The notes below the pieces were generated by a model. The model was not told the DNA's origin and did no database searches. It was given only the letters and a program-made list of their open reading frames with translations. This document shows positions 1,829 to 19,758 of a stretch of DNA of 20,000 nt, one piece after another. The translations under genes and the position numbers were made by a program. Each line of letters begins with the position of its first letter. Positions within the stretch are counted from its first letter, which is position 1. Origin of the DNA: an uncultured virus (IMG/VR IMGVR_UViG_3300025135_000004). Its lineage: Duplodnaviria; Heunggongvirae; Uroviricota; Caudoviricetes. The stretch is from the IMG/VR virus record IMGVR_UViG_3300025135_000004; one strand, 5' to 3'.

Positions 1829-4156
1829 ATGTCATCTAAGTATTTAAACACTGGTAACGGCAAATTTTTCTATAATCAGGTCGTTAAACCTGAGACTTCC
1901 GAAACGAAGACTGTAGAGATTTCAGCACACCACACTTTTATCATCGACTGTTCTGGCTCCATGTGGGGAGAACTATCGCAAATCCGTAAAGACTTGTATA
2001 ACAAGATTTCTACAATGCTTAAACCAAACGATTCAGTAACAATTATTTGGTTTTCTGGTAGAGGTCAATATGGAGTCCTTCTTGAAGATTACCATGTAAA
2101 TAGTGCCATCGGCCTAAATAAAGTTAAGGAGCTTATTGATAGATATTTAACCACAGTTGGGTTAACTGCCTTCAAGGAACCTCTTGTTGAACTTAAGGAA
2201 GTTATTAAAAGAGTTCAAGGAAGAAATAAGGACATGATTCATACTATGTTCTTTTTAACTGATGGTTATGATAACTGCTGGTCAACAAAAGAAATTATCA
2301 GTGCAATCGAAGGTGTTAAAGAGGAACTTGCAAGTGCAACAATTGTTGAATATGGTTGGTATTGTAACAAGAAGCTTCTCAATGAGATGGCAACTGCTGT
2401 TGGTGGAGTTCACACATTTAGCAAGAACTTTGACGAGTATGAGCCTTACGTAGAGAAAGCGTTCAACAACGGTCAAAGTGTTAAGAGAAGGTATATCAAA
2501 CTTGACCACGCTGCACATGGAGGGATTGTCTTTAATATCGTAGATGGAGACATTATCACATATCTTCCAAATGAAGATAATGAAATATTTGTAAGTGTTG
2601 AGGGTGAAGTTAACTTATTCTACTTTACTGAAAAAAATCCAGGAGGAATTTATCTTGGAGATGAGAACTTCATTTCTGATGCAACACTTGCTGGAGATAC
2701 TTCGAATGTTATTTTTGCTGGACTTTATGGAGCAGCTTTCGCATACTCAAGAAGCAGTGACTACAACATGGTTTCTGAGGTTTTGAAATTCCTTGGAGAT
2801 GCCTATTTGATTACTGAGAAAGCGAATACATTCGGTACTCAAAAAATTAATGAGCTTGAGGCTAAATTCATTAACTCTATGAATAACGTGAGTGAAAGAT
2901 ATACTCAAGGATATAATCCAGACCTTGAGCCAGCTGAAGATGCTTATTGTGTTATGGATATGCTTGAAACATTGATGTCAAGTGATGAAAATGTTTGGTA
3001 CCCAAGACATGAGTCTTTCGGATACCAGAGAACTGGAGGAAAGGCTGTCGCTAAGAAGTCTGACATGACTCAAGAAGACAAGGATGAAATTAAGAGGCTT
3101 ACTGAGGCTGGAGACATTGCGGCACTTCAAATTAAGCTTCAGGAGGTAGGTGAGACTACAACCGAAACACTAAAGTTTCAGTACAACGAAGAAATGCCTT
3201 CAAGCCCAATTTCAAATCTTACTTGGAATGAGAAGAGAGCAAATCTTTCTGTTCAAGTTCAATACGAGGGGTATGTAGAGCTTCCAGATAATAATTTTGG
3301 ATTGGGACCTAAGTTTGACACTCATATCTTTAGAAATTATACAATCATTAAAGACGGTGTAATCCACACGTATGAGTTACCAGTTAGCTTGAATAAAGAC
3401 ACTTTTGATACTCTTCAGGCAAATGGACTTCTTGAGGGAGAAACTTGGGAATCTGGTAAGATTATGGTTCTTAATTTCTCTAAATTACCTGTAATCAACA
3501 GACAAATGGTTAAATCCCTTTCTGCTGAGGCTTTATTTAAGAAATCTCACGAATTAATCAAACTTCAAGCTGCAAATTATGTATTTGGTCAGTATAAGAA
3601 AAGGTTGTTTGATGGTGCAAGCAAAGGCTTTTCTGACCTTTATGGCGCTGAGGCTACAGAATGGTTAAAAGGTCTTGGTCTTAGAGATTACGGATTTAAT
3701 CCGCCAAGTGTAGTTGAGAAAATGAATGAAGAAATTGAAGTTAATACTCTTGAGGTAAAAATTCAAGGATTATCTTCATCTCCAACTAAGGCTGATTTCG
3801 ATAAGCTTGAGAAAAAATTCCAAGCAGGTCTTGATGAAAGCTCGCTTTCTGGAAAAGAATTGCTTATTTCACCAGCAATGAAAGAATTCAGAACTTTCGA
3901 GCAAACTCTTAGCGGTCTTTCTGACGACTCAAAGAATAAAATGATTGAAGAGTGGATTTATAGCAAGTCTAATTCTTTCAGAGGAGCTAAGACTAAGCTT
4001 ATGACAGAAATTGCAAAGGCTAAATTCTTAACAATTGTTGGTAAATCATGGTTCCAAGAATTTGCAAGCAGAGAAGACAATCAGTTAACTCTTTTGCTTG
4101 ATGGACAAGATACCACTTGTACTGTTTTTGACAAACAAGAAACCATCAAGTTGTAA
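1829..4156 (+). CDS. von Willebrand factor A (VWA/MIDAS) domain protein with large unknown C-terminal region (775 aa)
   Basis: FIIDCSGSM (DxSxS MIDAS), GLTAF (T) and FFLTDG (D) in the N-terminal ~220 aa. Confidence 0.85.
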   Translation: MSSKYLNTGNGKFFYNQVVKPETSETKTVEISAHHTFIIDCSGSMWGELSQIRKDLYNKISTMLKPNDSVTIIWFSGRGQYGVLLEDYHVNSAIGLNKVKELIDRYLTTVGLTAFKEPLVELKEVIKRVQGRNKDMIHTMFFLTDGYDNCWSTKEIISAIEGVKEELASATIVEYGWYCNKKLLNEMATAVGGVHTFSKNFDEYEPYVEKAFNNGQSVKRRYIKLDHAAHGGIVFNIVDGDIITYLPNEDNEIFVSVEGEVNLFYFTEKNPGGIYLGDENFISDATLAGDTSNVIFAGLYGAAFAYSRSSDYNMVSEVLKFLGDAYLITEKANTFGTQKINELEAKFINSMNNVSERYTQGYNPDLEPAEDAYCVMDMLETLMSSDENVWYPRHESFGYQRTGGKAVAKKSDMTQEDKDEIKRLTEAGDIAALQIKLQEVGETTTETLKFQYNEEMPSSPISNLTWNEKRANLSVQVQYEGYVELPDNNFGLGPKFDTHIFRNYTIIKDGVIHTYELPVSLNKDTFDTLQANGLLEGETWESGKIMVLNFSKLPVINRQMVKSLSAEALFKKSHELIKLQAANYVFGQYKKRLFDGASKGFSDLYGAEATEWLKGLGLRDYGFNPPSVVEKMNEEIEVNTLEVKIQGLSSSPTKADFDKLEKKFQAGLDESSLSGKELLISPAMKEFRTFEQTLSGLSDDSKNKMIEEWIYSKSNSFRGAKTKLMTEIAKAKFLTIVGKSWFQEFASREDNQLTLLLDGQDTTCTVFDKQETIKL

Positions 4157-10549: not shown

Positions 10550-10660
10550 TTCAAAAAAATTGATTTTCTCAATTCAATTATTTATTTTTCATTCAAAAGC
10601 ATTTGCTTTCATATAAATAGAGAGAAAATGTATAAACCAATAATTTTTAAAAATTTACGC

Positions 10661-11017
10661 ATGGGAAAGTTAATTAACGCAAGTAAAGAAGAATTTCAAC
10701 AAATTATAGAATCAGAGAAAAATGTTATTCTCGTAGATTTTTGGGCAAATTGGTGTGGCCCATGTAGAACACTTGGTCCTATTTTGCAAGATATATCAGA
10801 TGAGGTTGAAGATGTTACAATTCTTAAGGTAAATGTTGATGAAGGTGAGAATGCAATGTTATCTGCTCAATTTGGTATTAAGGGAATTCCTACAGTAATT
10901 GTATTTAGGGGCGGTGAGCAAGTTGACAAGTTCGTTGGACTTAGGAAGAAGGATGAGATAATATCTGTGATTGAAAAAAATAGAGAAACAAAAGAGGTGG
11001 ATGAGTCAAAAAATTAA
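10661..11017 (+). CDS. trxA: Thioredoxin
   Basis: VDFWANWCGPC active site, KVNVD, GIPT. The ATG at 10661 gives typical Trx length (ORF track start 10628). Confidence 0.93.
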   Translation: MGKLINASKEEFQQIIESEKNVILVDFWANWCGPCRTLGPILQDISDEVEDVTILKVNVDEGENAMLSAQFGIKGIPTVIVFRGGEQVDKFVGLRKKDEIISVIEKNRETKEVDESKN

Positions 11018-11858
11018 TGCCATAGTATTCAGTAAAGACAGGCCAGCCCAGTTGAACCTACTGCTTGAGAGCATTAAAAAAAATGCCCCAGGAGTATTTG
11101 ACTTAAATGTAATTGTCAGTCATACAAGCGAGGAATTTGACAAGGGATATGGACGAGTGATTCATAATCCAGAGTTTTCTGATGTAAAATTTTTCTTTGC
11201 AGAATCAGAATTTAAGGAGCAAGTTATGAGGCTTTTAAGTGTCGAGGGCAAGTATTCTTGCTTTTTTCTTGATGATGACCTTATATACAGAGAAGTTAAA
11301 CTTGCCGACATTGAAACTCAGCTGGAGCTTGATGATGATGTTGCTTGTTTTTCTTTGAGACTTGGAGAGAACACAAAGAATTGCTATACGCTTGGGACAA
11401 ACAATGTGCTCCACGATATGGAGCACGTGCAGAATACCATGAAGTGGGACTGGACTCTTCACTATCTTGATTTTGGATACCCCTTTGCGATGGATGGGCA
11501 TATATTTAGAAAATCAGATATTTACAAGCTTGTAAAAAAATCTAAATTTACAGGTGTTGAGGAGCTTGAGATGGCGCTATTTGATTTTACTGAGATGTTT
11601 CCAAGAAATAAAATGGTGTCATATAAGTATAGTGCTCTTGTTGGAGTTCCAATAGGAAGAGTGCAGCAGTCAATTGATGATGAAATGACCATCGCTCTTC
11701 AGGAGAGCAAGGCCAGAGTTATGAGAGTTGAGATGAATAATCAATTCTTGGATAATAATTTTATAAGTTTAGAAAAAATAGACTTTTCTGAAATAAATGG
11801 ATGTCATCAAGATTTAAACCTTGGCGTAAAAATAAAAAAACAGCAAGAAAATGAATAA
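11001..11858 (+). CDS. Putative GT-A fold glycosyltransferase
   Basis: IVFSKDRPAQLNLLLES N-terminus and FFLDDD (DxD-like). Probable ATG at 11001, overlapping the trx end. Confidence 0.6.
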   Translation: MSQKINAIVFSKDRPAQLNLLLESIKKNAPGVFDLNVIVSHTSEEFDKGYGRVIHNPEFSDVKFFFAESEFKEQVMRLLSVEGKYSCFFLDDDLIYREVKLADIETQLELDDDVACFSLRLGENTKNCYTLGTNNVLHDMEHVQNTMKWDWTLHYLDFGYPFAMDGHIFRKSDIYKLVKKSKFTGVEELEMALFDFTEMFPRNKMVSYKYSALVGVPIGRVQQSIDDEMTIALQESKARVMRVEMNNQFLDNNFISLEKIDFSEINGCHQDLNLGVKIKKQQENE

Positions 11859-12483
11859 GATTGAATATACAAACCCTTCGTTTCAAAGGATAAAATCACA
11901 ACTTGGAGCTCCTTCGATAGATATTGAACTTACGAATGAGCAAATGGCTGACTTACTTGAAAGTGCTCATAACGCCTTTTACCTGCTTTATGAGTTGGAT
12001 AAAGTAGAGAGAACAAAATACTTCAAAGACTTCTGGGTTGAGCAATATTTTTTCGCACTGTGCAAGGAGGCTCTTGGGAGAGTTAGAGGAAAATTTGACG
12101 GAAAACTACCAGTTCCAGGAACAGAATTAAAACTTAATCACAAGGAGTTGTTGGTGGAGGCAGATAAGGAAAAACAATTCCTTAGATATTTGATGCTTAA
12201 GGATAAAAACATTTTAATAGAAAATCAAAAACCAATCTTAGCATTCTATATAAATGTGAGAAATATGAATGGTGAAGATGTATCAACTTTAGTTGAACAA
12301 ATCAAAGCGGAGTTCCACAGCGATAATCTTATACAGTATTTTGTTCCGATTAGAGATGGTGAAAGCAGAATTGAGTGCGTATACCCAAAATACATTGCAA
12401 GCGATGAAGTCAAGAAGGAAATAGAGGAATCTACTTCCTGTTTTAATAATCGAATAAAAAACTTTGAAGGTAATGAGGAATAA
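11851..12483 (+). CDS. Miniature neck protein (gp13-like) fused to a portal (gp20) clip-like segment
   Basis: aa 11-115: IKSQLGAPSIDIELTNEQM and WVEQYFFALCKEALGRVRGKF..PG..LN...L.EA..EK..L match the gp13 N- and C-terminal motifs. aa 128-179: FYINVRNMNGEDV...YFVPIRDG.SRIE resembles portal FYIDVGN...Y(F/W).P.R. Confidence 0.6.
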   Translation: MNKIEYTNPSFQRIKSQLGAPSIDIELTNEQMADLLESAHNAFYLLYELDKVERTKYFKDFWVEQYFFALCKEALGRVRGKFDGKLPVPGTELKLNHKELLVEADKEKQFLRYLMLKDKNILIENQKPILAFYINVRNMNGEDVSTLVEQIKAEFHSDNLIQYFVPIRDGESRIECVYPKYIASDEVKKEIEESTSCFNNRIKNFEGNEE

Positions 12484-13216
12484 AATCAAAATAATAATAC
12501 CATTCTATAATCCAGGGGAATTTTTGGAGCAATGTGTTGCAACTGCAATGTCACAAAAGTATGACAACTACGAAGTAATATTTATTGACGACATGTCAAC
12601 AGATGGCTCTTACGATAAATTACCTCATGATAATCCTAAGGCAAAGATTATTAGGAACACAATCAGGAAGACAGCTCTTGAAAACATTCACGATGCAATT
12701 ATGAACCATTGCGAGCCAGATGACATCGTTGTCCTTCTCGATGGAGACGACTGGTTTCCAAACAAGAAAGTCCTTCAATATGTTGATGAACAATATAGTG
12801 AACATGATTGCTGGATTATGTATGGACAAGCGAGTTGGACAGATGGTAGAAGAGGATTTGCAAGCGCATATCCAGTGGAAGAATTTAAAAACGTTAGAAC
12901 GGCCCCATTTAGAGTTTCCCATCTTAGAACTTTTAGGGCTGGACTTTATCATAGAATTAAAGACCAAGACCCGACTTTTTCTCACCTTAAAGATGATGAG
13001 GGAAATTTCTATCGTTGGTCATACGATACAGCAATGATGTTTACAATAATGGAGATGGCTGGCCACGAGAAGACAAGGTTTAATGATACGATTCTTTATA
13101 TCTACAATAGAGATAATCCTATCTCTGAAGATAAAGTAAATCAACAAGCCCAATGGGATGTTCATAAAGCTGTCAGCAAAAAAAAGCCTATGATGCAGAT
13201 TTTATCTTATAAGTAA
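12473..13216 (+). CDS. GT2 family glycosyltransferase
   Basis: IIIPFYN, IFIDDMSTDGS, LLDGDDW. Probable ATG at 12473. Confidence 0.9.
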   Translation: MRNKIKIIIPFYNPGEFLEQCVATAMSQKYDNYEVIFIDDMSTDGSYDKLPHDNPKAKIIRNTIRKTALENIHDAIMNHCEPDDIVVLLDGDDWFPNKKVLQYVDEQYSEHDCWIMYGQASWTDGRRGFASAYPVEEFKNVRTAPFRVSHLRTFRAGLYHRIKDQDPTFSHLKDDEGNFYRWSYDTAMMFTIMEMAGHEKTRFNDTILYIYNRDNPISEDKVNQQAQWDVHKAVSKKKPMMQILSYK

Positions 13217-13227
13217 AATACTATTTT

Positions 13228-14139
13228 ATGGTAGGAGAGTTAGATAATTTAATAAATTACATTAATGCAAAAAAAATTGATTACAATAATATTAAAGAAA
13301 ATAATATCGTAATCATTCAAGACCCAGAAAAGTCTTATGATATTAATTTTTTAATTACAGCGAGGGGTAGGGCAAATTTTGCTCAACCAATGTATGATAG
13401 TTTTAAGGCGGCTGCAGATAATTCTAAATTAAACATCACATATACAGTTGTTGAACACAGTGAATTTCCAGAACACTCAAAATTCTGTAAAAAAAACAAG
13501 CTTAATTATATTTGGATTAAATCTACTCCAGGAGAGCTGTTCAACAAGTGTCTATCCTACAACGTGGGTGTTTTTTTTGGGCCTAAGTCAAAATATTGCT
13601 TATTTCACGACATAGATTGCTTAGTTCAATCTGATTTTTTTATTAAATTATCAGAAAATATTGAAAACAAAAAATGTAGAGCTATTCAGTGTTTCACTGG
13701 GAGGAGAGTTTTGTATATTAGCGAGCAATTTACACCTAAAGTTATTTCTGGAGAATTTTCAGTTGATAACCTAAATCTTTCTATGCCAGAAGTTGACTTA
13801 CCAAGACTTGGGGGAAAAGTGATGATTGGCGCTCCTGGTGGCTCCATTCTCGTTGAGAGAGATTTGTTTTTTGAAGTTGGTGGATATGATGCTGAATTAT
13901 TTTTAGCAAATTCTCCAGAAGATGCTTTTTTTTGGGAAAAGATTGATGCAATTGATAAGATGCATATTTCTGATAGCCCAGACATTGAATTATATCACAT
14001 GTACCACCCGCCTACTTGGATGAATAATCCATATGTAGATGAGATGCAGATAATAAATAAAATTTTTAAAGAATTGAGTTTAGAAGACAAAAAAATAATA
14101 ATTAGTCTAAAATCTGATGTGATTAAAGAGTTTAAATAA
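13228..14139 (+). CDS. Glycosyltransferase, GT2/GT7-C (galactosyltransferase-like)
   Basis: FNKCLSYNVG, FHDID, VGGYDAELF...ED and LYHMYHP motifs. Confidence 0.8.
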   Translation: MVGELDNLINYINAKKIDYNNIKENNIVIIQDPEKSYDINFLITARGRANFAQPMYDSFKAAADNSKLNITYTVVEHSEFPEHSKFCKKNKLNYIWIKSTPGELFNKCLSYNVGVFFGPKSKYCLFHDIDCLVQSDFFIKLSENIENKKCRAIQCFTGRRVLYISEQFTPKVISGEFSVDNLNLSMPEVDLPRLGGKVMIGAPGGSILVERDLFFEVGGYDAELFLANSPEDAFFWEKIDAIDKMHISDSPDIELYHMYHPPTWMNNPYVDEMQIINKIFKELSLEDKKIIISLKSDVIKEFK

Positions 14140-14149
14140 AATCTAAAAT

Positions 14150-14749
14150 ATGATTGATATTGTTTATTACATAAACCTGGACCACAGAGATGATAGAAGG
14201 GCTCACATAGAAAAAACGTTAAAAAAATGTGACCTTATAAATATTTCACACAGAATTTCAGCAATTAAAAGAGATATTGGTGTCATGGGTTGTGTTGAGT
14301 CTCATATTCTAACTTTAGAAAAATTTATTGAATCAGGATTAGATTATGCGTTGATAATAGAAGATGATTTGTTAATAAAAGAAAAAGAAAATTTTAAAAA
14401 AGAATTGTCTAAAATATTTGAAAAGAACATAGATTTTGATTTAGTTCAAATATCTGGAAATCACATAAAACTTGATGATTGCAGTTATGATTTCTTAAGA
14501 AAAGTAATTGATTCTCAGACCACCTCTGGATACATAATAACAAGAGGATTTGCACCAATTCTATTGAAAAACTTTAGAGAGTCTCTTGAGAATATGAACA
14601 AGGAAGGTAAGAAACATGAAAATTGTTTAGATATTTATTGGAAAAAATTACAACCAGACAATAAGTGGTTTGCATTTTTCCCAGCTCTTGGAACTCAAAT
14701 GCCTGGGTATTCGGATATAGAAAATAGAGATGTATATTATAATTGTTAA
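14150..14749 (+). CDS. GT25 family glycosyltransferase
   Basis: YYINLDHRDDRR, GCVESH, IIEDD, TSGYII and SDIE motifs. Confidence 0.85.
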   Translation: MIDIVYYINLDHRDDRRAHIEKTLKKCDLINISHRISAIKRDIGVMGCVESHILTLEKFIESGLDYALIIEDDLLIKEKENFKKELSKIFEKNIDFDLVQISGNHIKLDDCSYDFLRKVIDSQTTSGYIITRGFAPILLKNFRESLENMNKEGKKHENCLDIYWKKLQPDNKWFAFFPALGTQMPGYSDIENRDVYYNC

Positions 14750-14751
14750 TT

Positions 14752-15561
14752 ATGCAGGAAGAAAATATGAATAATATAAAAATTTATTGCAGCTGGGACC
14801 TTGAAATTGAATTAAAGCACGAGAAACAAATAGAGTTGTACGTTGACAAACTTCCAGTAGATAAAAGTCCACCTGGAGTTGTAAGATTTGTCTTTCTATT
14901 GGAGCCTCCTGAGATATTAGATTTGACTAAACACATAATTCAAGCACATCATAATAACACATTCGACTATTTATTTACTCATAACCAAGAGTTATTAGAT
15001 ACGATAAAAAACTCATTTGTAATGCCGCTGGCATCCACTTGGATTAGAGACTATAATTTTCCAGAAAAAGAGTTTTCTGTATCCGCTCTTGTTGGTGGAA
15101 AACTTCTTGCACCTGGACATTATCTTAGGCAAAAAATCTGGTTTAAAGAAGATAAAATAACTGTGCCAAGAAGATTTTTTTTGAGTGGTAATTATGGTGG
15201 AATAGAAAATTATAACAATAACCCAATTCTTGGAAAAGATAAGGCACCTTTATTTGATAGTCAATTTCACATTTGTATTGAAAATGCTAATAGGAGAAAT
15301 TGGTTTACTGAAAAAATAATTGATTGCATGGTTACTAAGACTGTTCCTATATATTGGGGTTGCCCAAATATAGGAGATTGGTTTGATACGAGAGGGATGA
15401 TTATAGCAAGTGATTATAAAGAGATAATTGATAAGTGCAATTCTCTAAACGAAAACACATATAATGAAATGCTTCCATTTATTGAAAGTAATTTTGAAGA
15501 GTCAAAAAAATATGTTAGTATTGCAGATAGATTAAGAAATAAAATTTTAGAACTAATATAG
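14752..15561 (+). CDS. GT10-like (alpha-1,3/4-fucosyltransferase family) glycosyltransferase
   Basis: FHICIEN....FTEKIIDC..TKTVPIYWGCPNI signature. Start at 14752 or 14767. Confidence 0.8.
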   Translation: MQEENMNNIKIYCSWDLEIELKHEKQIELYVDKLPVDKSPPGVVRFVFLLEPPEILDLTKHIIQAHHNNTFDYLFTHNQELLDTIKNSFVMPLASTWIRDYNFPEKEFSVSALVGGKLLAPGHYLRQKIWFKEDKITVPRRFFLSGNYGGIENYNNNPILGKDKAPLFDSQFHICIENANRRNWFTEKIIDCMVTKTVPIYWGCPNIGDWFDTRGMIIASDYKEIIDKCNSLNENTYNEMLPFIESNFEESKKYVSIADRLRNKILELI

Positions 15562-15600
15562 ATAAAGCATAATAGTTTTATAGTAAAATAAAAATTTAAA

Positions 15601-16797
15601 ATGGGAAATCCTACATGGCCAGATGTAATGAAATTTGAATTGGTTAAAAACCCAATTTTATTTGACGTAGGCGGATATAAAGGTGATTGGGCACAGATAG
15701 CTATGGATAATTACGGAGATTCAGTAATTTATGTGTTTGAACCAGTAAAAGAATTCTACAACATAATAGTTGAAAGATATAAGAATAATTCAAATATAAA
15801 AGTGTTTAACTTTGGATTATCAGATGAAAATAGAACTGAAAAAATATCAAATTCAGCCGATGCATCTTCTGTATTTCTTGGAGGCGGAGGAGAAGAAATT
15901 GAATTAAAAGACATTAGAGAGTTTTTGTTTGAACAAAATATATTTCATGTAGACTTAATAAAAATAAACATTGAAGGGGAAGAATATAGACTTTTGGAGC
16001 ATCTAATCAAACATCCAGAACTTAATGTGTTTGAAAATTACCTGATTCAATTTCATACATTTATCGACAATCACATAGAAAGGAGGAATGTAATTGTAGA
16101 GGAAATATCTAAATATTATGAAAGAGTTTTTAATTATGAGTTCATTTTTGAAGGATGGACTATGAAAAAAATTCAAAAGATAAACTGCTTTGGAGATAGT
16201 CATATTAGTATTTTTTCTCAAGCCGAGCACTTAATTAAGGAAAATATATTTTCAATTACAGGTCCATTTAATGCTTTTCGATTTGGCCCTTATGTGGCAT
16301 ACAACCTTCAGAGTAAGTCAAATGTTATAAGTAACATAAGTGCTGTAAATAAAAACGAAAATCTTCTTATTTGTTTTGGAGAAATAGATTGTAGAGCTCA
16401 AGTTAAAAAAGTATGTGAAGAAACCAATAGGGGTTATAAAGAGGTTATTGATGAAATTATATATAATTACTTCACTGTAGTAAAATGCGCAAACAATAAA
16501 AACACTATATTATTCTCAGTTGCTCCAGAATTAAAAGAAAAACCCCATTGGTATTATTACAAAGACCATCCAGAAGTCTTTGATTGTCCAAGAGGAACAC
16601 TATCTGAAAGAGCAGAATATAAAAGGTATTTTAATCAAAGAGTAAAAGAGGAATCTGAGAAATTAGGATTAAAATATATTTCAATTTATGATTATGTTAA
16701 TGGAAAAGATATTTACTATCTTGATGATATTCACTTGGCCCCTAAAAAGGTTTTTTATTTTATTAAAAGAGAAATGATTAAAAACGGATTAATATGA
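15601..16797 (+). CDS. FkbM-family methyltransferase fused to SGNH/GDSL-like hydrolase domain
   Basis: N-terminus FDVGGYKG, VFEPV, FNFGLS, LIKINIEGEEY. C-terminus CFGDSH, FGEIDCR, DDIHL. Confidence 0.8.
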   Translation: MGNPTWPDVMKFELVKNPILFDVGGYKGDWAQIAMDNYGDSVIYVFEPVKEFYNIIVERYKNNSNIKVFNFGLSDENRTEKISNSADASSVFLGGGGEEIELKDIREFLFEQNIFHVDLIKINIEGEEYRLLEHLIKHPELNVFENYLIQFHTFIDNHIERRNVIVEEISKYYERVFNYEFIFEGWTMKKIQKINCFGDSHISIFSQAEHLIKENIFSITGPFNAFRFGPYVAYNLQSKSNVISNISAVNKNENLLICFGEIDCRAQVKKVCEETNRGYKEVIDEIIYNYFTVVKCANNKNTILFSVAPELKEKPHWYYYKDHPEVFDCPRGTLSERAEYKRYFNQRVKEESEKLGLKYISIYDYVNGKDIYYLDDIHLAPKKVFYFIKREMIKNGLI

Positions 16798-17597
16798 CAA
16801 TAAAGTCAGATAAAATGGAAATTTCAGCAACACTTCAAGGCGGCCTCGGAAACTACATGTTTCAAGTTGCTGTCGCATATGCATACGCAAAAAGATATGA
16901 TATGGAGGTTGGTTTTAGTGCTCAACAAGCAAGGGGGCCTCACCAAGATGCTTGGGAATATCAAGATAATGTATTTAAGGGTGTTGATTTGGTATTTTTT
17001 ATGAAAGGGAATCCACGTCAAATCCTCGAATCTGGATTCCACTATCAAGAATTACCTTTTTATCCAAATATAAGTATCTTGTTAACAGGATATTTTCAAT
17101 CTGAAAAATATTTTAAGGATTACGAAAATGAGATTAGAGACCTATTTATGTCATACGATGTTGAGCTTAGTGACGAGATTAGAGGACTTCTTGAAAATGA
17201 AAATACATGCTCAATACACGTAAGAAGGGGCGATTATCTTAAGTCCCCAAATCATCACCCAACTCAGAACATGAACTATTACATGAAGGCTATTAGGCAA
17301 ATGCCAAAAGATTCTGTGTTTCTTATTTTTTCTGATGATATTCAGTGGTGCAAAGACAATTTTCCAGACCTTCCAGAAAAGTTTAAATTCATAGAAGGAA
17401 ACAAAGATTATGAAGACCTTTATCTGATGAGTCGATGCAAAAACAACATTATCTGTAACTCAACATTTTCATGGTGGGGAGCTTGGCTTAATAGAAATGA
17501 GGACAAAATAGTTGTTGCCCCCTCAACCTGGTTTGGGCCCGCATACTCTAATTATAATATAGATGACCTTTATTGTGATGGTTGGATTAAAATTTAA
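16794..17597 (+). CDS. GT11 alpha-1,2-fucosyl/colitosyltransferase
   Basis: GGLGNYMFQ, GYFQSEKYF, HVRRGDY, FSDDIQWC and NSTFSWWGAWL motifs. Confidence 0.92.
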   Translation: MTIKSDKMEISATLQGGLGNYMFQVAVAYAYAKRYDMEVGFSAQQARGPHQDAWEYQDNVFKGVDLVFFMKGNPRQILESGFHYQELPFYPNISILLTGYFQSEKYFKDYENEIRDLFMSYDVELSDEIRGLLENENTCSIHVRRGDYLKSPNHHPTQNMNYYMKAIRQMPKDSVFLIFSDDIQWCKDNFPDLPEKFKFIEGNKDYEDLYLMSRCKNNIICNSTFSWWGAWLNRNEDKIVVAPSTWFGPAYSNYNIDDLYCDGWIKI

Positions 17598-17601
17598 TTA
17601 A

Positions 17602-18516
17602 ATGAAACAAGATAGAATAGTAGTTACAGGAGGAAGTGGCATGGTCGGCAAGTCTCTTAAGAAGATTATGCCAAATGCAATATATCTTTCATCCAAAGAT
17701 TATGACCTCACATCCGAGAGAGGTGTGGCTCAGATGTATTATGACCTTAAGCCAAGCGTGGTAATTCATCTTGCGGCCAAGGTGGGTGGAATCGTTGATA
17801 ACATCAACAGGCCCAGCACTTATTTCACTGACAATGTTCTTATGAATACGCTTCTTGTTGAATATGCAAGACATCACGGTGTAGAAAGGTTTATAGGAAT
17901 ATTGAGCACATGCATATACCCTGATGTTGCTGAAAATTATCCGATGACTGAAGATATGCTTCATCACGGCCCCCCAACTCCAACCAATTTTTCTTATGGA
18001 TATGCGAAGCGTTGCCTGGCAGTTCAAATAGATGCATGCAACAAGGAGCATGGGACAAATTATCAATATCTCACTCCATGCAATCTCTATGGAGAGCATG
18101 ATAAGTTTGGAGATAATAGCCATTTCGTTGCAGCATTAATTAAAAAGATTCATCACGCAAAAGTCTTTGGAGATGATAAGATAACTCTTTTTGGAACAGG
18201 AGCTCCTCTTAGGCAGTTTATGCACTCAGATGACCTTGCAAAAGTTATCAAGAAATGTATTGATGATGAAATTTATGAAAGCTTTAATGTTGCCACAGAG
18301 CAAAATGTTTCTATTGACGACATCGCCAGAACAGCCCTTAGAGCTTGCGATGCAACTCACATTAAAATTGAGTACGATTCAAGCAAGCCAGATGGTCAAT
18401 TTCGAAAAGATGTGTCAATAGAAAAGATGAAAAGTTTGTTTCCAGAATTTAAAGCAACGAGGCTTTATCACGGAATCGGCTCAACATATTCTATTTTACA
18501 GCAAACCTGGAAATAA
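17602..18516 (+). CDS. fcl: GDP-L-fucose synthase / ColC-like epimerase-reductase
   Basis: TGGSGMVG, HLAAKVGGI, LSTCIYP, YGYAK, PCNLYG, SHFV, GTGAPLRQF and KPDG motifs. Confidence 0.88.
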   Translation: MKQDRIVVTGGSGMVGKSLKKIMPNAIYLSSKDYDLTSERGVAQMYYDLKPSVVIHLAAKVGGIVDNINRPSTYFTDNVLMNTLLVEYARHHGVERFIGILSTCIYPDVAENYPMTEDMLHHGPPTPTNFSYGYAKRCLAVQIDACNKEHGTNYQYLTPCNLYGEHDKFGDNSHFVAALIKKIHHAKVFGDDKITLFGTGAPLRQFMHSDDLAKVIKKCIDDEIYESFNVATEQNVSIDDIARTALRACDATHIKIEYDSSKPDGQFRKDVSIEKMKSLFPEFKATRLYHGIGSTYSILQQTWK

Positions 18517-18570
18517 TCAACTTGATTATTAATTTTCATTTTCATATTATTAATAAAAATAATGTGAAAG

Positions 18571-19758
18571 ATGATAAAAGAAAAAATTACGCTTGTCAAA
18601 GACACCATCGACAAAGATGATATTGATAATTTAATTGAGTGGCTTAAAACGTATCCACGACTAACCAAGGGCCCTAAGACAATTGAATTTGAAGAGATGT
18701 GGTCCAATTGGATTGGGTGCAAGTATTCAGTGTTTGTAAATTCTGGCTCTTCAGCCAACCTTCTCATGCTTTATGCACTTAAAGTATTGGGTAATCTAAG
18801 AAACGATAAAATTGTAGTTCCAGCTCTTGCTTGGGCAACTGACATGGCTCCAGTAATTCAACTTGGATTTGACCCACTTATCTGTGATTGCAACATGCAG
18901 AACCTTGCGGTTGATACGAGTCAGCTTGAGTCAATTTTTAAATACCACAAGCCAGCGGCAATGATTCTTGTGTCTGTTCTTGGACTATCTCCAGATATGG
19001 ATAAGATTGTTGAGCTTTGTCAGAAGTACGGAGTTGTTCTTCTTGAGGATAACTGTGAGTCTCAAGGAACTGAGTTTGACGGAAAGAAGCTTGGGAACTT
19101 CGGACTCATGTCTTCATTCTCCACTTACTTTGGGCACACAATGAGCACAATTGAGGGTGGAATGATTTGTACAAACGACAAGGATGTATATGACCTATTG
19201 AAGATGCTTAGAAGCCACGGGTGGGATAGAGACCTTGATGAAGATGCGCAACAAAAATTAAGAGCCAAGTGGGGGGTTGATGATTTTTCTGCTCTTTACA
19301 CTTTTTATGAGCCAGGATTCAACGTGCGCTCAACCGACCTTCAAGCGGTGATTGGAATTGGCCAGCTTAATAAGGTTGATTCAATGATTGATACAAGAAA
19401 TGAAAATTTCTATCACTTTCTTGATGCTATGAAATCTTTTGATAAAAAGAAAAAAGTCTGGACACCAACTGAGCATAAAAATTCGTTTACAGCATCTTTC
19501 TGCTATCCAATGATATTCCTGAATAAGAAGGATAAGGAAAAAGCTGTTAAGGCCTTAATTGATGCAGGCGTTGAGACAAGACCTCTCATCTGTGGTTCCA
19601 TGGGAACTCAACCATTTTTTATTAGTAGATATGGTAGACATGAAACTCTAAATGCAGCTGTTGTTGATGAGTGTGGAATCTATGTTCCAAATCACCCAAA
19701 GCTAACTAAAGAAGATATAGAGTTTATTTGTAAAACAGTAATTGAATCAATTAAGTAA
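18571..19758 (+). CDS. DegT/DnrJ-family PLP enzyme, ColD-like GDP-4-keto-6-deoxymannose 3-dehydratase
   Basis: VNSGSSANL, LLEDNCES, FSTYFGHTMSTIEGG with His189 in place of the Schiff-base Lys, and LRSHGW without the E1 Fe-S cysteines. Confidence 0.8.
   Translation: MIKEKITLVKDTIDKDDIDNLIEWLKTYPRLTKGPKTIEFEEMWSNWIGCKYSVFVNSGSSANLLMLYALKVLGNLRNDKIVVPALAWATDMAPVIQLGFDPLICDCNMQNLAVDTSQLESIFKYHKPAAMILVSVLGLSPDMDKIVELCQKYGVVLLEDNCESQGTEFDGKKLGNFGLMSSFSTYFGHTMSTIEGGMICTNDKDVYDLLKMLRSHGWDRDLDEDAQQKLRAKWGVDDFSALYTFYEPGFNVRSTDLQAVIGIGQLNKVDSMIDTRNENFYHFLDAMKSFDKKKKVWTPTEHKNSFTASFCYPMIFLNKKDKEKAVKALIDAGVETRPLICGSMGTQPFFISRYGRHETLNAAVVDECGIYVPNHPKLTKEDIEFICKTVIESIK

Follow-up and report, generated by a model that had tools for sequence, protein, structure and literature searches.

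A gene joining a neck-adaptor core to a free portal-clip domain in a large T4-like phage

Described systems and the layout of the gene

The closest described proteins are the gp13 neck adaptor of T4 (Ad2; PF26809 Phage_T4_gp13, phrog_211; PDB 9lu4 and 9mkb) and the clip of the T4-type portal gp20 (PF07230; PDB 3ja7 and 6uzc). The available part of PMC4493910 assigns the clip to gp20 residues 279-358 and names N291, M292, R295 and K296 as likely terminase contacts. Contact between the gp13 swing domain and the clip hairpin (311-325) is described in the available part of PMC12929629. Unlike the protein reported here, the neck rings of SPP1 (gp15), HK97 (gp6), Mu and phiCD508 are each the sole adaptor of their own phage and carry a portal-binding tail.

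The gene lies in the window, the whole stretch of 20,000 nucleotides that was analysed. This stretch forms the end of a linear virus record of 71 kb, rated 24% complete, that belongs to a large T4-like phage. The features of the gene are listed below.

11851..12483, + strand: whole gene, 210 aa, a neck-adaptor core and a free portal-clip domain (AlphaFold2 pLDDT 82.9, 47 rows)
11875..12000, + strand: aa 9-50, helices 1-2 of gp13 domain I with the LGAP..VEL loop, matching T4 gp13 11-53 (limits from the available part of PMC12929587)
12001..12018, + strand: aa 51-56, short join where gp13 has its swing and fibritin-binding domains (T4 52-239; available part of PMC12929587)
12019..12198, + strand: gene segment directly after the short join
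12091..12138, + strand: aa 81-96, equivalent of the gp14-binding adaptor loop, intact in the window gene (available part of PMC12929587)
12235..12387, + strand: aa 129-179, clip-like beta-alpha-beta-beta domain, matching residues 258-284 and 307-323 of the phage's own portal, without the hairpin
12259..12279, + strand: aa 137-143, clip tip, N138/M139 corresponding to T4 gp20 N291/M292 (available part of PMC4493910)
12403..12477, + strand: aa 185-209, C-terminal helix common to the stand-alone clip family, with no portal alignment

The same contig encodes a portal (C1:25146-27188) and a full gp13 (C1:42589-43788), both confirmed with PHROGs, and reading its ORFs by eye also gave a large terminase, gp14/gp15-like genes and a major capsid protein. 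The closest cultured portals, from Microcystis and Flavobacterium phages, are only 39-41% identical. A Shine-Dalgarno-like word was found at 2 of 44 contig genes, and the sequence before the genes is rich in A at positions -11 to -13 and -3. This pattern is the initiation signature of Bacteroidota, the presumed host phylum. A promoter scan gave 6 hits versus 11.6 by chance, that is, below chance, and no RNA holder was found. Elsewhere in the window, positions 1829-4156 (+) encode a 775-aa vWA-domain protein (phrog_2426, E 6e-148) whose neighbours lie on the opposite strand.

Homologue searches yielded 10 relatives and then more, mostly of 199-214 aa, and the final alignment held 47 rows. Five members are 267-277 aa long with a C-terminal extension; an extra domain of about 65 aa without family match was seen in P0022, P0029, P0034, P0037 and P0039. 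Full gp13 and portal accompany the fusion in 4/4 virus records (the window phage and three others). Identity to those three records was 60/44/35% for the fusion, 92/81/85% for gp13 and 87/81/86% for the portal. The dN/dS ratio was 0.20-0.30 in 7/9 pairs, the other two being one without synonymous change and one saturated, and no sign of positive selection was seen over the whole gene.

The preliminary description had taken the intact frame as an argument against decay, and the 47 intact rows together with the dN/dS of 0.20-0.30 bear this out and rule out a pseudogene or decayed duplicate. It had also named a way to be wrong: this gene might be the only gp13 homologue of the genome. A full gp13 is present on the contig and occupies the head-neck module as its adaptor, which rules out that the fusion is the true neck protein.

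Kept and lost features of the two halves

Like T4 gp13, the fusion has the four-helix domain I and both gp14-facing loops, and self-association through the bundle is predicted for it. Unlike T4 gp13, it lacks swing domain II, fibritin domain III and the portal-binding arm at the C-terminus, the chain running on into a linker and the attached clip domain, and it is an extra copy outside the head-neck module. The proposal that N-terminal and C-terminal gp13 motifs had been joined with the middle deleted held for the anatomy, since aa 52 meets aa 57 and the swing and fibritin domains are absent. The gp14-binding adaptor loop is present in the window gene and in 43/47 rows, and degenerate in 4/47.

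The acidic face of the channel-lining helix is also lost, with T4 E284/E291/E295 corresponding to V102/Q109/Y113 of the fusion. In the last helix (helix 4), position 106 is acidic in 35/43 full gp13 versus 0/47 fusion rows, and position 113 in 21/43 versus 0/47. The fusion rows retain the core of helix 3, the N-loop and the tip of the clip. The swing domain and the clip hairpin, partners in mutual contact, are both absent from the fusion protein.

A tree of the cores (95 columns) puts those of the fusions in a single clade, with the phage's own gp13 outside it (support 0.92); the sample is biased, since the 43 full gp13 were retrieved with the fusion's own motif. A solo-core profile scored the fusion at E 1.7e-36 versus 2e-16 for the own gp13. 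A recent deletion from the own gp13 was rejected on the separate clade, this profile preference and a DNA match of only one 37-nt stretch. The earlier claim of a fusion of head-neck parts therefore stands as anatomy and falls as an origin by deletion of the own gp13 joined to the own portal. Two fusion members, P0009 and P0010, have a one-residue insertion before the adaptor loop as in own-clade full gp13, perhaps from gene conversion.

A PDB Foldseek search of the good model gave no match at E<=0.001, its top rows being ATP synthase delta/OSCP at rmsd >16 Å. A wide VIA search barely covered the C-half, and an Atlas feature search gave scores of only 0.75-0.76. A first fold from 11 rows reached pLDDT 59 and was too poor for use.

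A model with four copies scored 0.47 versus 0.00 for the best control. The score mark was reached by 20/30 solved pairs and 1/23 single chains, counts that apply only roughly to this four-copy model. The runs agreed in at least 55% of contacts with pLDDT of at least 61. All confident contacts lay within residues 9-114, with no clip residue among them. The model predicts self-association through the core, head-to-tail as in adaptor rings, and its score may reflect likeness to solved adaptor rings.

The C-terminal half had been read as the portal clip minus its loop, and alignment to the own portal indeed showed a gap at the hairpin. Outside the gene itself, a profile of aa 122-182 picked out just the own portal from the ORFs of the contig (E 6.4e-9), the runner-up being at 0.063. 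Hhalign placed the C-half on portal 258-328 with the gap at the hairpin site (P 92.9%), so a failure of this half to align to portal, the other way in which the preliminary description said it could be wrong, was not what we found. The family matched 54 portals at P 96.7% (reversed control 0.1%), with two separate motifs agreeing in order and about 50 residues aligned. A portal alignment reaching into aa 67-116 was dropped, gp13 explaining that stretch better. The profile was also run on 43 virus records, of which 24 had been selected because they contain a related portal. It gave 34 matches in 33 records, with 32 lying in frames of 609-1613 codons and the other 2 in short ORFs that stand alone. 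In relatives (L201, L232, L236, L373 and others), portal frames reach 900-1900 codons, likely through intein insertions.

The signal was weak in unbiased libraries, with T4 gp20 284-310 at E 0.57-1.2 and Portal_T4 in 3/13 members. A PHROGs search with the C-half gave no portal family, and another search gave no portal among 44 matches. A BFVD fold search listed six portal or capsid-assembly rows among its top 23 (E 0.02-0.17).

Like the T4-type clip, the C-half has the strand-helix-strand-strand order and the GN[LM] tip, YFIP and (R/K)IE motifs. Unlike gp20, it has no stem, wing or crown, the hairpin (T4 311-325) is deleted, and it ends in ECxxP and a helix of its own. The tip is kept in the fusion rows (G137 in 37/47, N138 in 39/47, L/M139 in 42/47, D/E143 in 46/47). 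Of the fusion rows, 23/47 retain the Arg that follows IP and is invariant in 54 portals. Taken together, the C-half is very probably homologous to the portal clip.

Stand-alone relatives and the operon slot

The clip-like domain belongs to a stand-alone family with the motif R/K-x-E-C-x-N/Y-P. A profile including short matches found 608 proteins and 132 viral stretches, with a typical product of 84-100 aa, and matched the fusion C-half at P 99.6%. When a profile was built from 59 solo proteins only, 61/67 portal ORFs scored E<0.05 and outranked all unrelated ORFs among 2,104; these portal ORFs are mutually related and the counts are not independent.

The best 150 proteins from a scan of 1.84 billion representatives comprised 17 fusions, 53 contiguous core-only proteins, 27 clip-only proteins and 53 gp13 or partial sequences. 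The core-only proteins among them are mostly 105-143 aa long; some of the shorter ones may be incomplete sequences, and one solo core was seen in its genome setting. Unlike small single-domain adaptors, the cores are gp13-type by sequence, with 29/29 aligned cores matching phrog_211, and they stand alongside a full gp13 wherever the genome was seen. Viral contigs searched with a DNA pattern for contiguous cores gave 8 stretches, of which 3 were fusions, 4 full gp13 and 1 unrelated; none was a solo core. The solo core with context is in G017 (291 kb, 91% complete), together with a full gp13 and a portal, the only clip match being in its portal.

The slot of the fusion gene is defined by the genes on either side.

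10628..11017, + strand: thioredoxin, opening the gene run that leads into the glycan operon
10971..11858, + strand: upstream neighbour without family match, DxD-like motif by eye, overlapping the fusion start by 8 nt; fixed slot partner
12464..13216, + strand: GT2 glycosyltransferase (PF00535, E 6.6e-18), likely ATG at 12473, overlapping the fusion stop; fixed slot partner

The long glycan operon (window 12464-19758) encodes GT2s, GT25, GT10, an FkbM methyltransferase, GT11, an epimerase and a DegT aminotransferase, and its gene content varies among relatives. Fifteen fusion loci were compared, some of them near-duplicates, and 15/15 fit the same slot. On the 3' side, GT2 follows directly in 12, after an inserted gene in 2, and the contig ends in 1; on the 5' side, the same upstream gene is present in 12 and the contig starts there in 3. 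In L090:6109-6744, L092 and L093, the fusion gene is immediately followed by an insertion, a gene with a weak match to the GIY-YIG-like ORF of the contig. The upstream neighbour gave no match in 5 large relatives, a comparison that was uninformative.

In two records, L351 and L352, a solo clip of 84 and 88 aa, respectively, occupies the slot of the fusion with the same two flanking genes, and each record has a full gp13 elsewhere. A neighbour-gene tree of 13 loci does not pair the two as sisters (split support 87), which means more than one loss or exchange of the core. The window clip is nearest to the solo forms (45% and 42.5% versus 39% for the best fusion). Since both halves have stand-alone families and relatives carry either half alone, the gene is best read, from sequence, as a fusion of two existing small modules rather than a fresh gp13 deletion.

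Among the solo-clip loci, 37/59 (one clade) precede a string of three genes whose last member is GT-like, and the G017 solo core stands directly ahead of the same string. The string genes gave no Pfam match and one weak NCBIfam GT match only (E 0.008). The other 22 loci, bar the L351 slot copy, lie amid nucleotide-metabolism, replication and other genes.

Several further loci carry related pieces. At L292:2428-3552 (+), a free clip domain is fused to a MazG-like pyrophosphatase (374 aa). G053 (L385, L405) and G054 have two solo clip genes per record. A 61-aa ORF with a weak clip-like match (L302:4138-4323, +; E 1e-6) lies two genes from a solo clip, and a Tad6-like Thoeris inhibitor match (L277:442-1221, +; E 2e-13) lies about 1.8 kb upstream of another. 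In a 735-kb phage record, an ORF of about 95-100 aa (L362; W01:C1:15166-15351, -) resembles Portal_T4 374-431 (E 1.8e-5) apart from the true portal, and is possibly a second kind of free portal fragment.

Possible roles and their meaning

With the clip tip retained but no acidic face, swing domain or portal-binding arm, the fusion presumably neither forms a DNA channel nor docks on the capsid, and it cannot serve as the neck of the phage. The earlier idea of an interface mimic fits the surfaces that the sequence keeps and loses. We tentatively favour a decoy as its role. A neck core and a free clip are kept as an accessory fusion under purifying selection, and the copies would associate through the core and display clip tips. 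Outside the virion, the protein would soak up binders of the portal-neck junction, most likely host sensors of the portal or adaptor.

The decoy is favoured because the gene is small, modular, fast-changing and selected, and because portal and adaptor are known triggers. The gene is an extra copy beside the true gp13 and portal and diverges far faster than them, yet is constrained. Its modularity is seen in the core, clip and fusion forms, in the solo clip in the same slot and in the clip on the MazG-like enzyme. The portal, the portal adaptor and the head-tail connector are immune triggers according to the available parts of PMC13581612, PMC13017515 and PMC13728456. [quoted passage not shown]

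Other observations also speak against a decoy. The gene keeps a stable slot in a glycan operon, not amid varied counter-defence genes, which is atypical for counter-defence. Pfam, PHROGs and NCBIfam, libraries that hold few such families, gave no anti-defence family match. The tip Asn is kept in only 17/59 solo clips, the clip is absent from the confident four-copy contacts, and the gene as a whole lacks a sign of positive selection.

Structural-mimic counter-defence proteins offer a comparison. DSAD1 of SPbeta competes with the tail tube protein for DSR2. Like DSAD1, the fusion is a small accessory protein that would fill the site of a virion protein. Unlike DSAD1, to which it has no sequence link, it is built from homologous pieces of virion proteins.

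A doubtful but serious alternative is an assembly placeholder or chaperone, whose clip would cap the portal-binding arm of gp13 or hold spare terminase and whose core would hold gp14, so that nothing docks too early or wrongly before the heads are filled. The tip agrees with the phage's own portal (GN[LM]..D), and the adaptor loop resembles that of own-clade gp13 (0.53) more than those of other gp13 groups (0.31, 0.44). Clip genes are also slightly nearer to same-genome portals than permuted pairs are (p 0.036, 15 records; W01 and G065 dropped for lack of an anchor, G055 and G059 off register). Such a role would match the mis-assembled gp20/gp14/gp13 that T4 forms without Hfq, according to the available part of PMC12929587. 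However, the gene diverges much faster than its would-be partners, covariation at clade level was not significant (p 0.11), the loop is lost in 4/47 rows, the core is absent in L351 and L352, and the gene lies about 19 kb from the neck genes on the other strand.

Gene order points to another role, which we consider unlikely: an adaptor that anchors or places the sugar enzymes encoded with it at the portal or neck of assembling particles, or an acceptor scaffold. The constant slot in all fusion loci, the overlap of the fusion frame with both neighbours and the GT-like-ending string behind solo clips and the G017 core are consistent with it. That string, however, follows solo clips of one clade, its genes have the scant family matches given above, and the other 22 loci have a different setting.

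Two roles in particle assembly appear very improbable. A dominant-negative subunit could poison the neck or portal assembly of co-infecting related phages; the core retains a predicted self-association surface and the fusion rows are not grouped with the own gp13 in the core tree, but the clip half is nearest to own-clade portals, implying a risk of self-poisoning. The adaptor fold, the predicted self-association and the loops kept in most rows would equally suit a true minor virion part, such as a second adaptor ring or a vertex decoration. The full gp13, the loss of the portal-binding arm and acidic face, the missing core in close relatives and the location outside the structural module argue against it. 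Least credible is a convergent small alpha/beta fold with an unrelated role, which the weak database-wide portal E-values, the non-portal ECxxP motif and last helix and the generic small folds among Atlas structure look-alikes of a solo clip would allow, but which the ranking of portal ORFs by the 59-protein profile, the two motifs matching in order and the BFVD rows contradict.

Our literature search found no description of free clips, free gp13 cores or their fusion, although annotation in a supplementary table could exist, and Pfam, PHROGs and NCBIfam, in the copies searched, contain no family dedicated to the stand-alone and fused accessory forms. Both building blocks are known folds; the stand-alone and fused accessory variant is real and undescribed. 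It is quite conceivable, if still short of probable, that large T4-like phages carry a new class of junction mimics (free clips, in the hundreds, free cores and fusions), interchangeably heading glycan operons, either as decoys that blind portal or adaptor sensing or as docking adaptors for sugar enzymes.

The portal and the neck adaptor are essential, slowly changing parts, now known as triggers of bacterial immunity. If the decoy reading is true, widespread small copies of their docking surfaces would give phages a general means of countering structure-based sensing; alternatively, they may mark a control step in jumbo-phage assembly. The core, the clip and the fusion would also be small natural reagents for testing which surfaces are needed by sensors, terminase and neck proteins.
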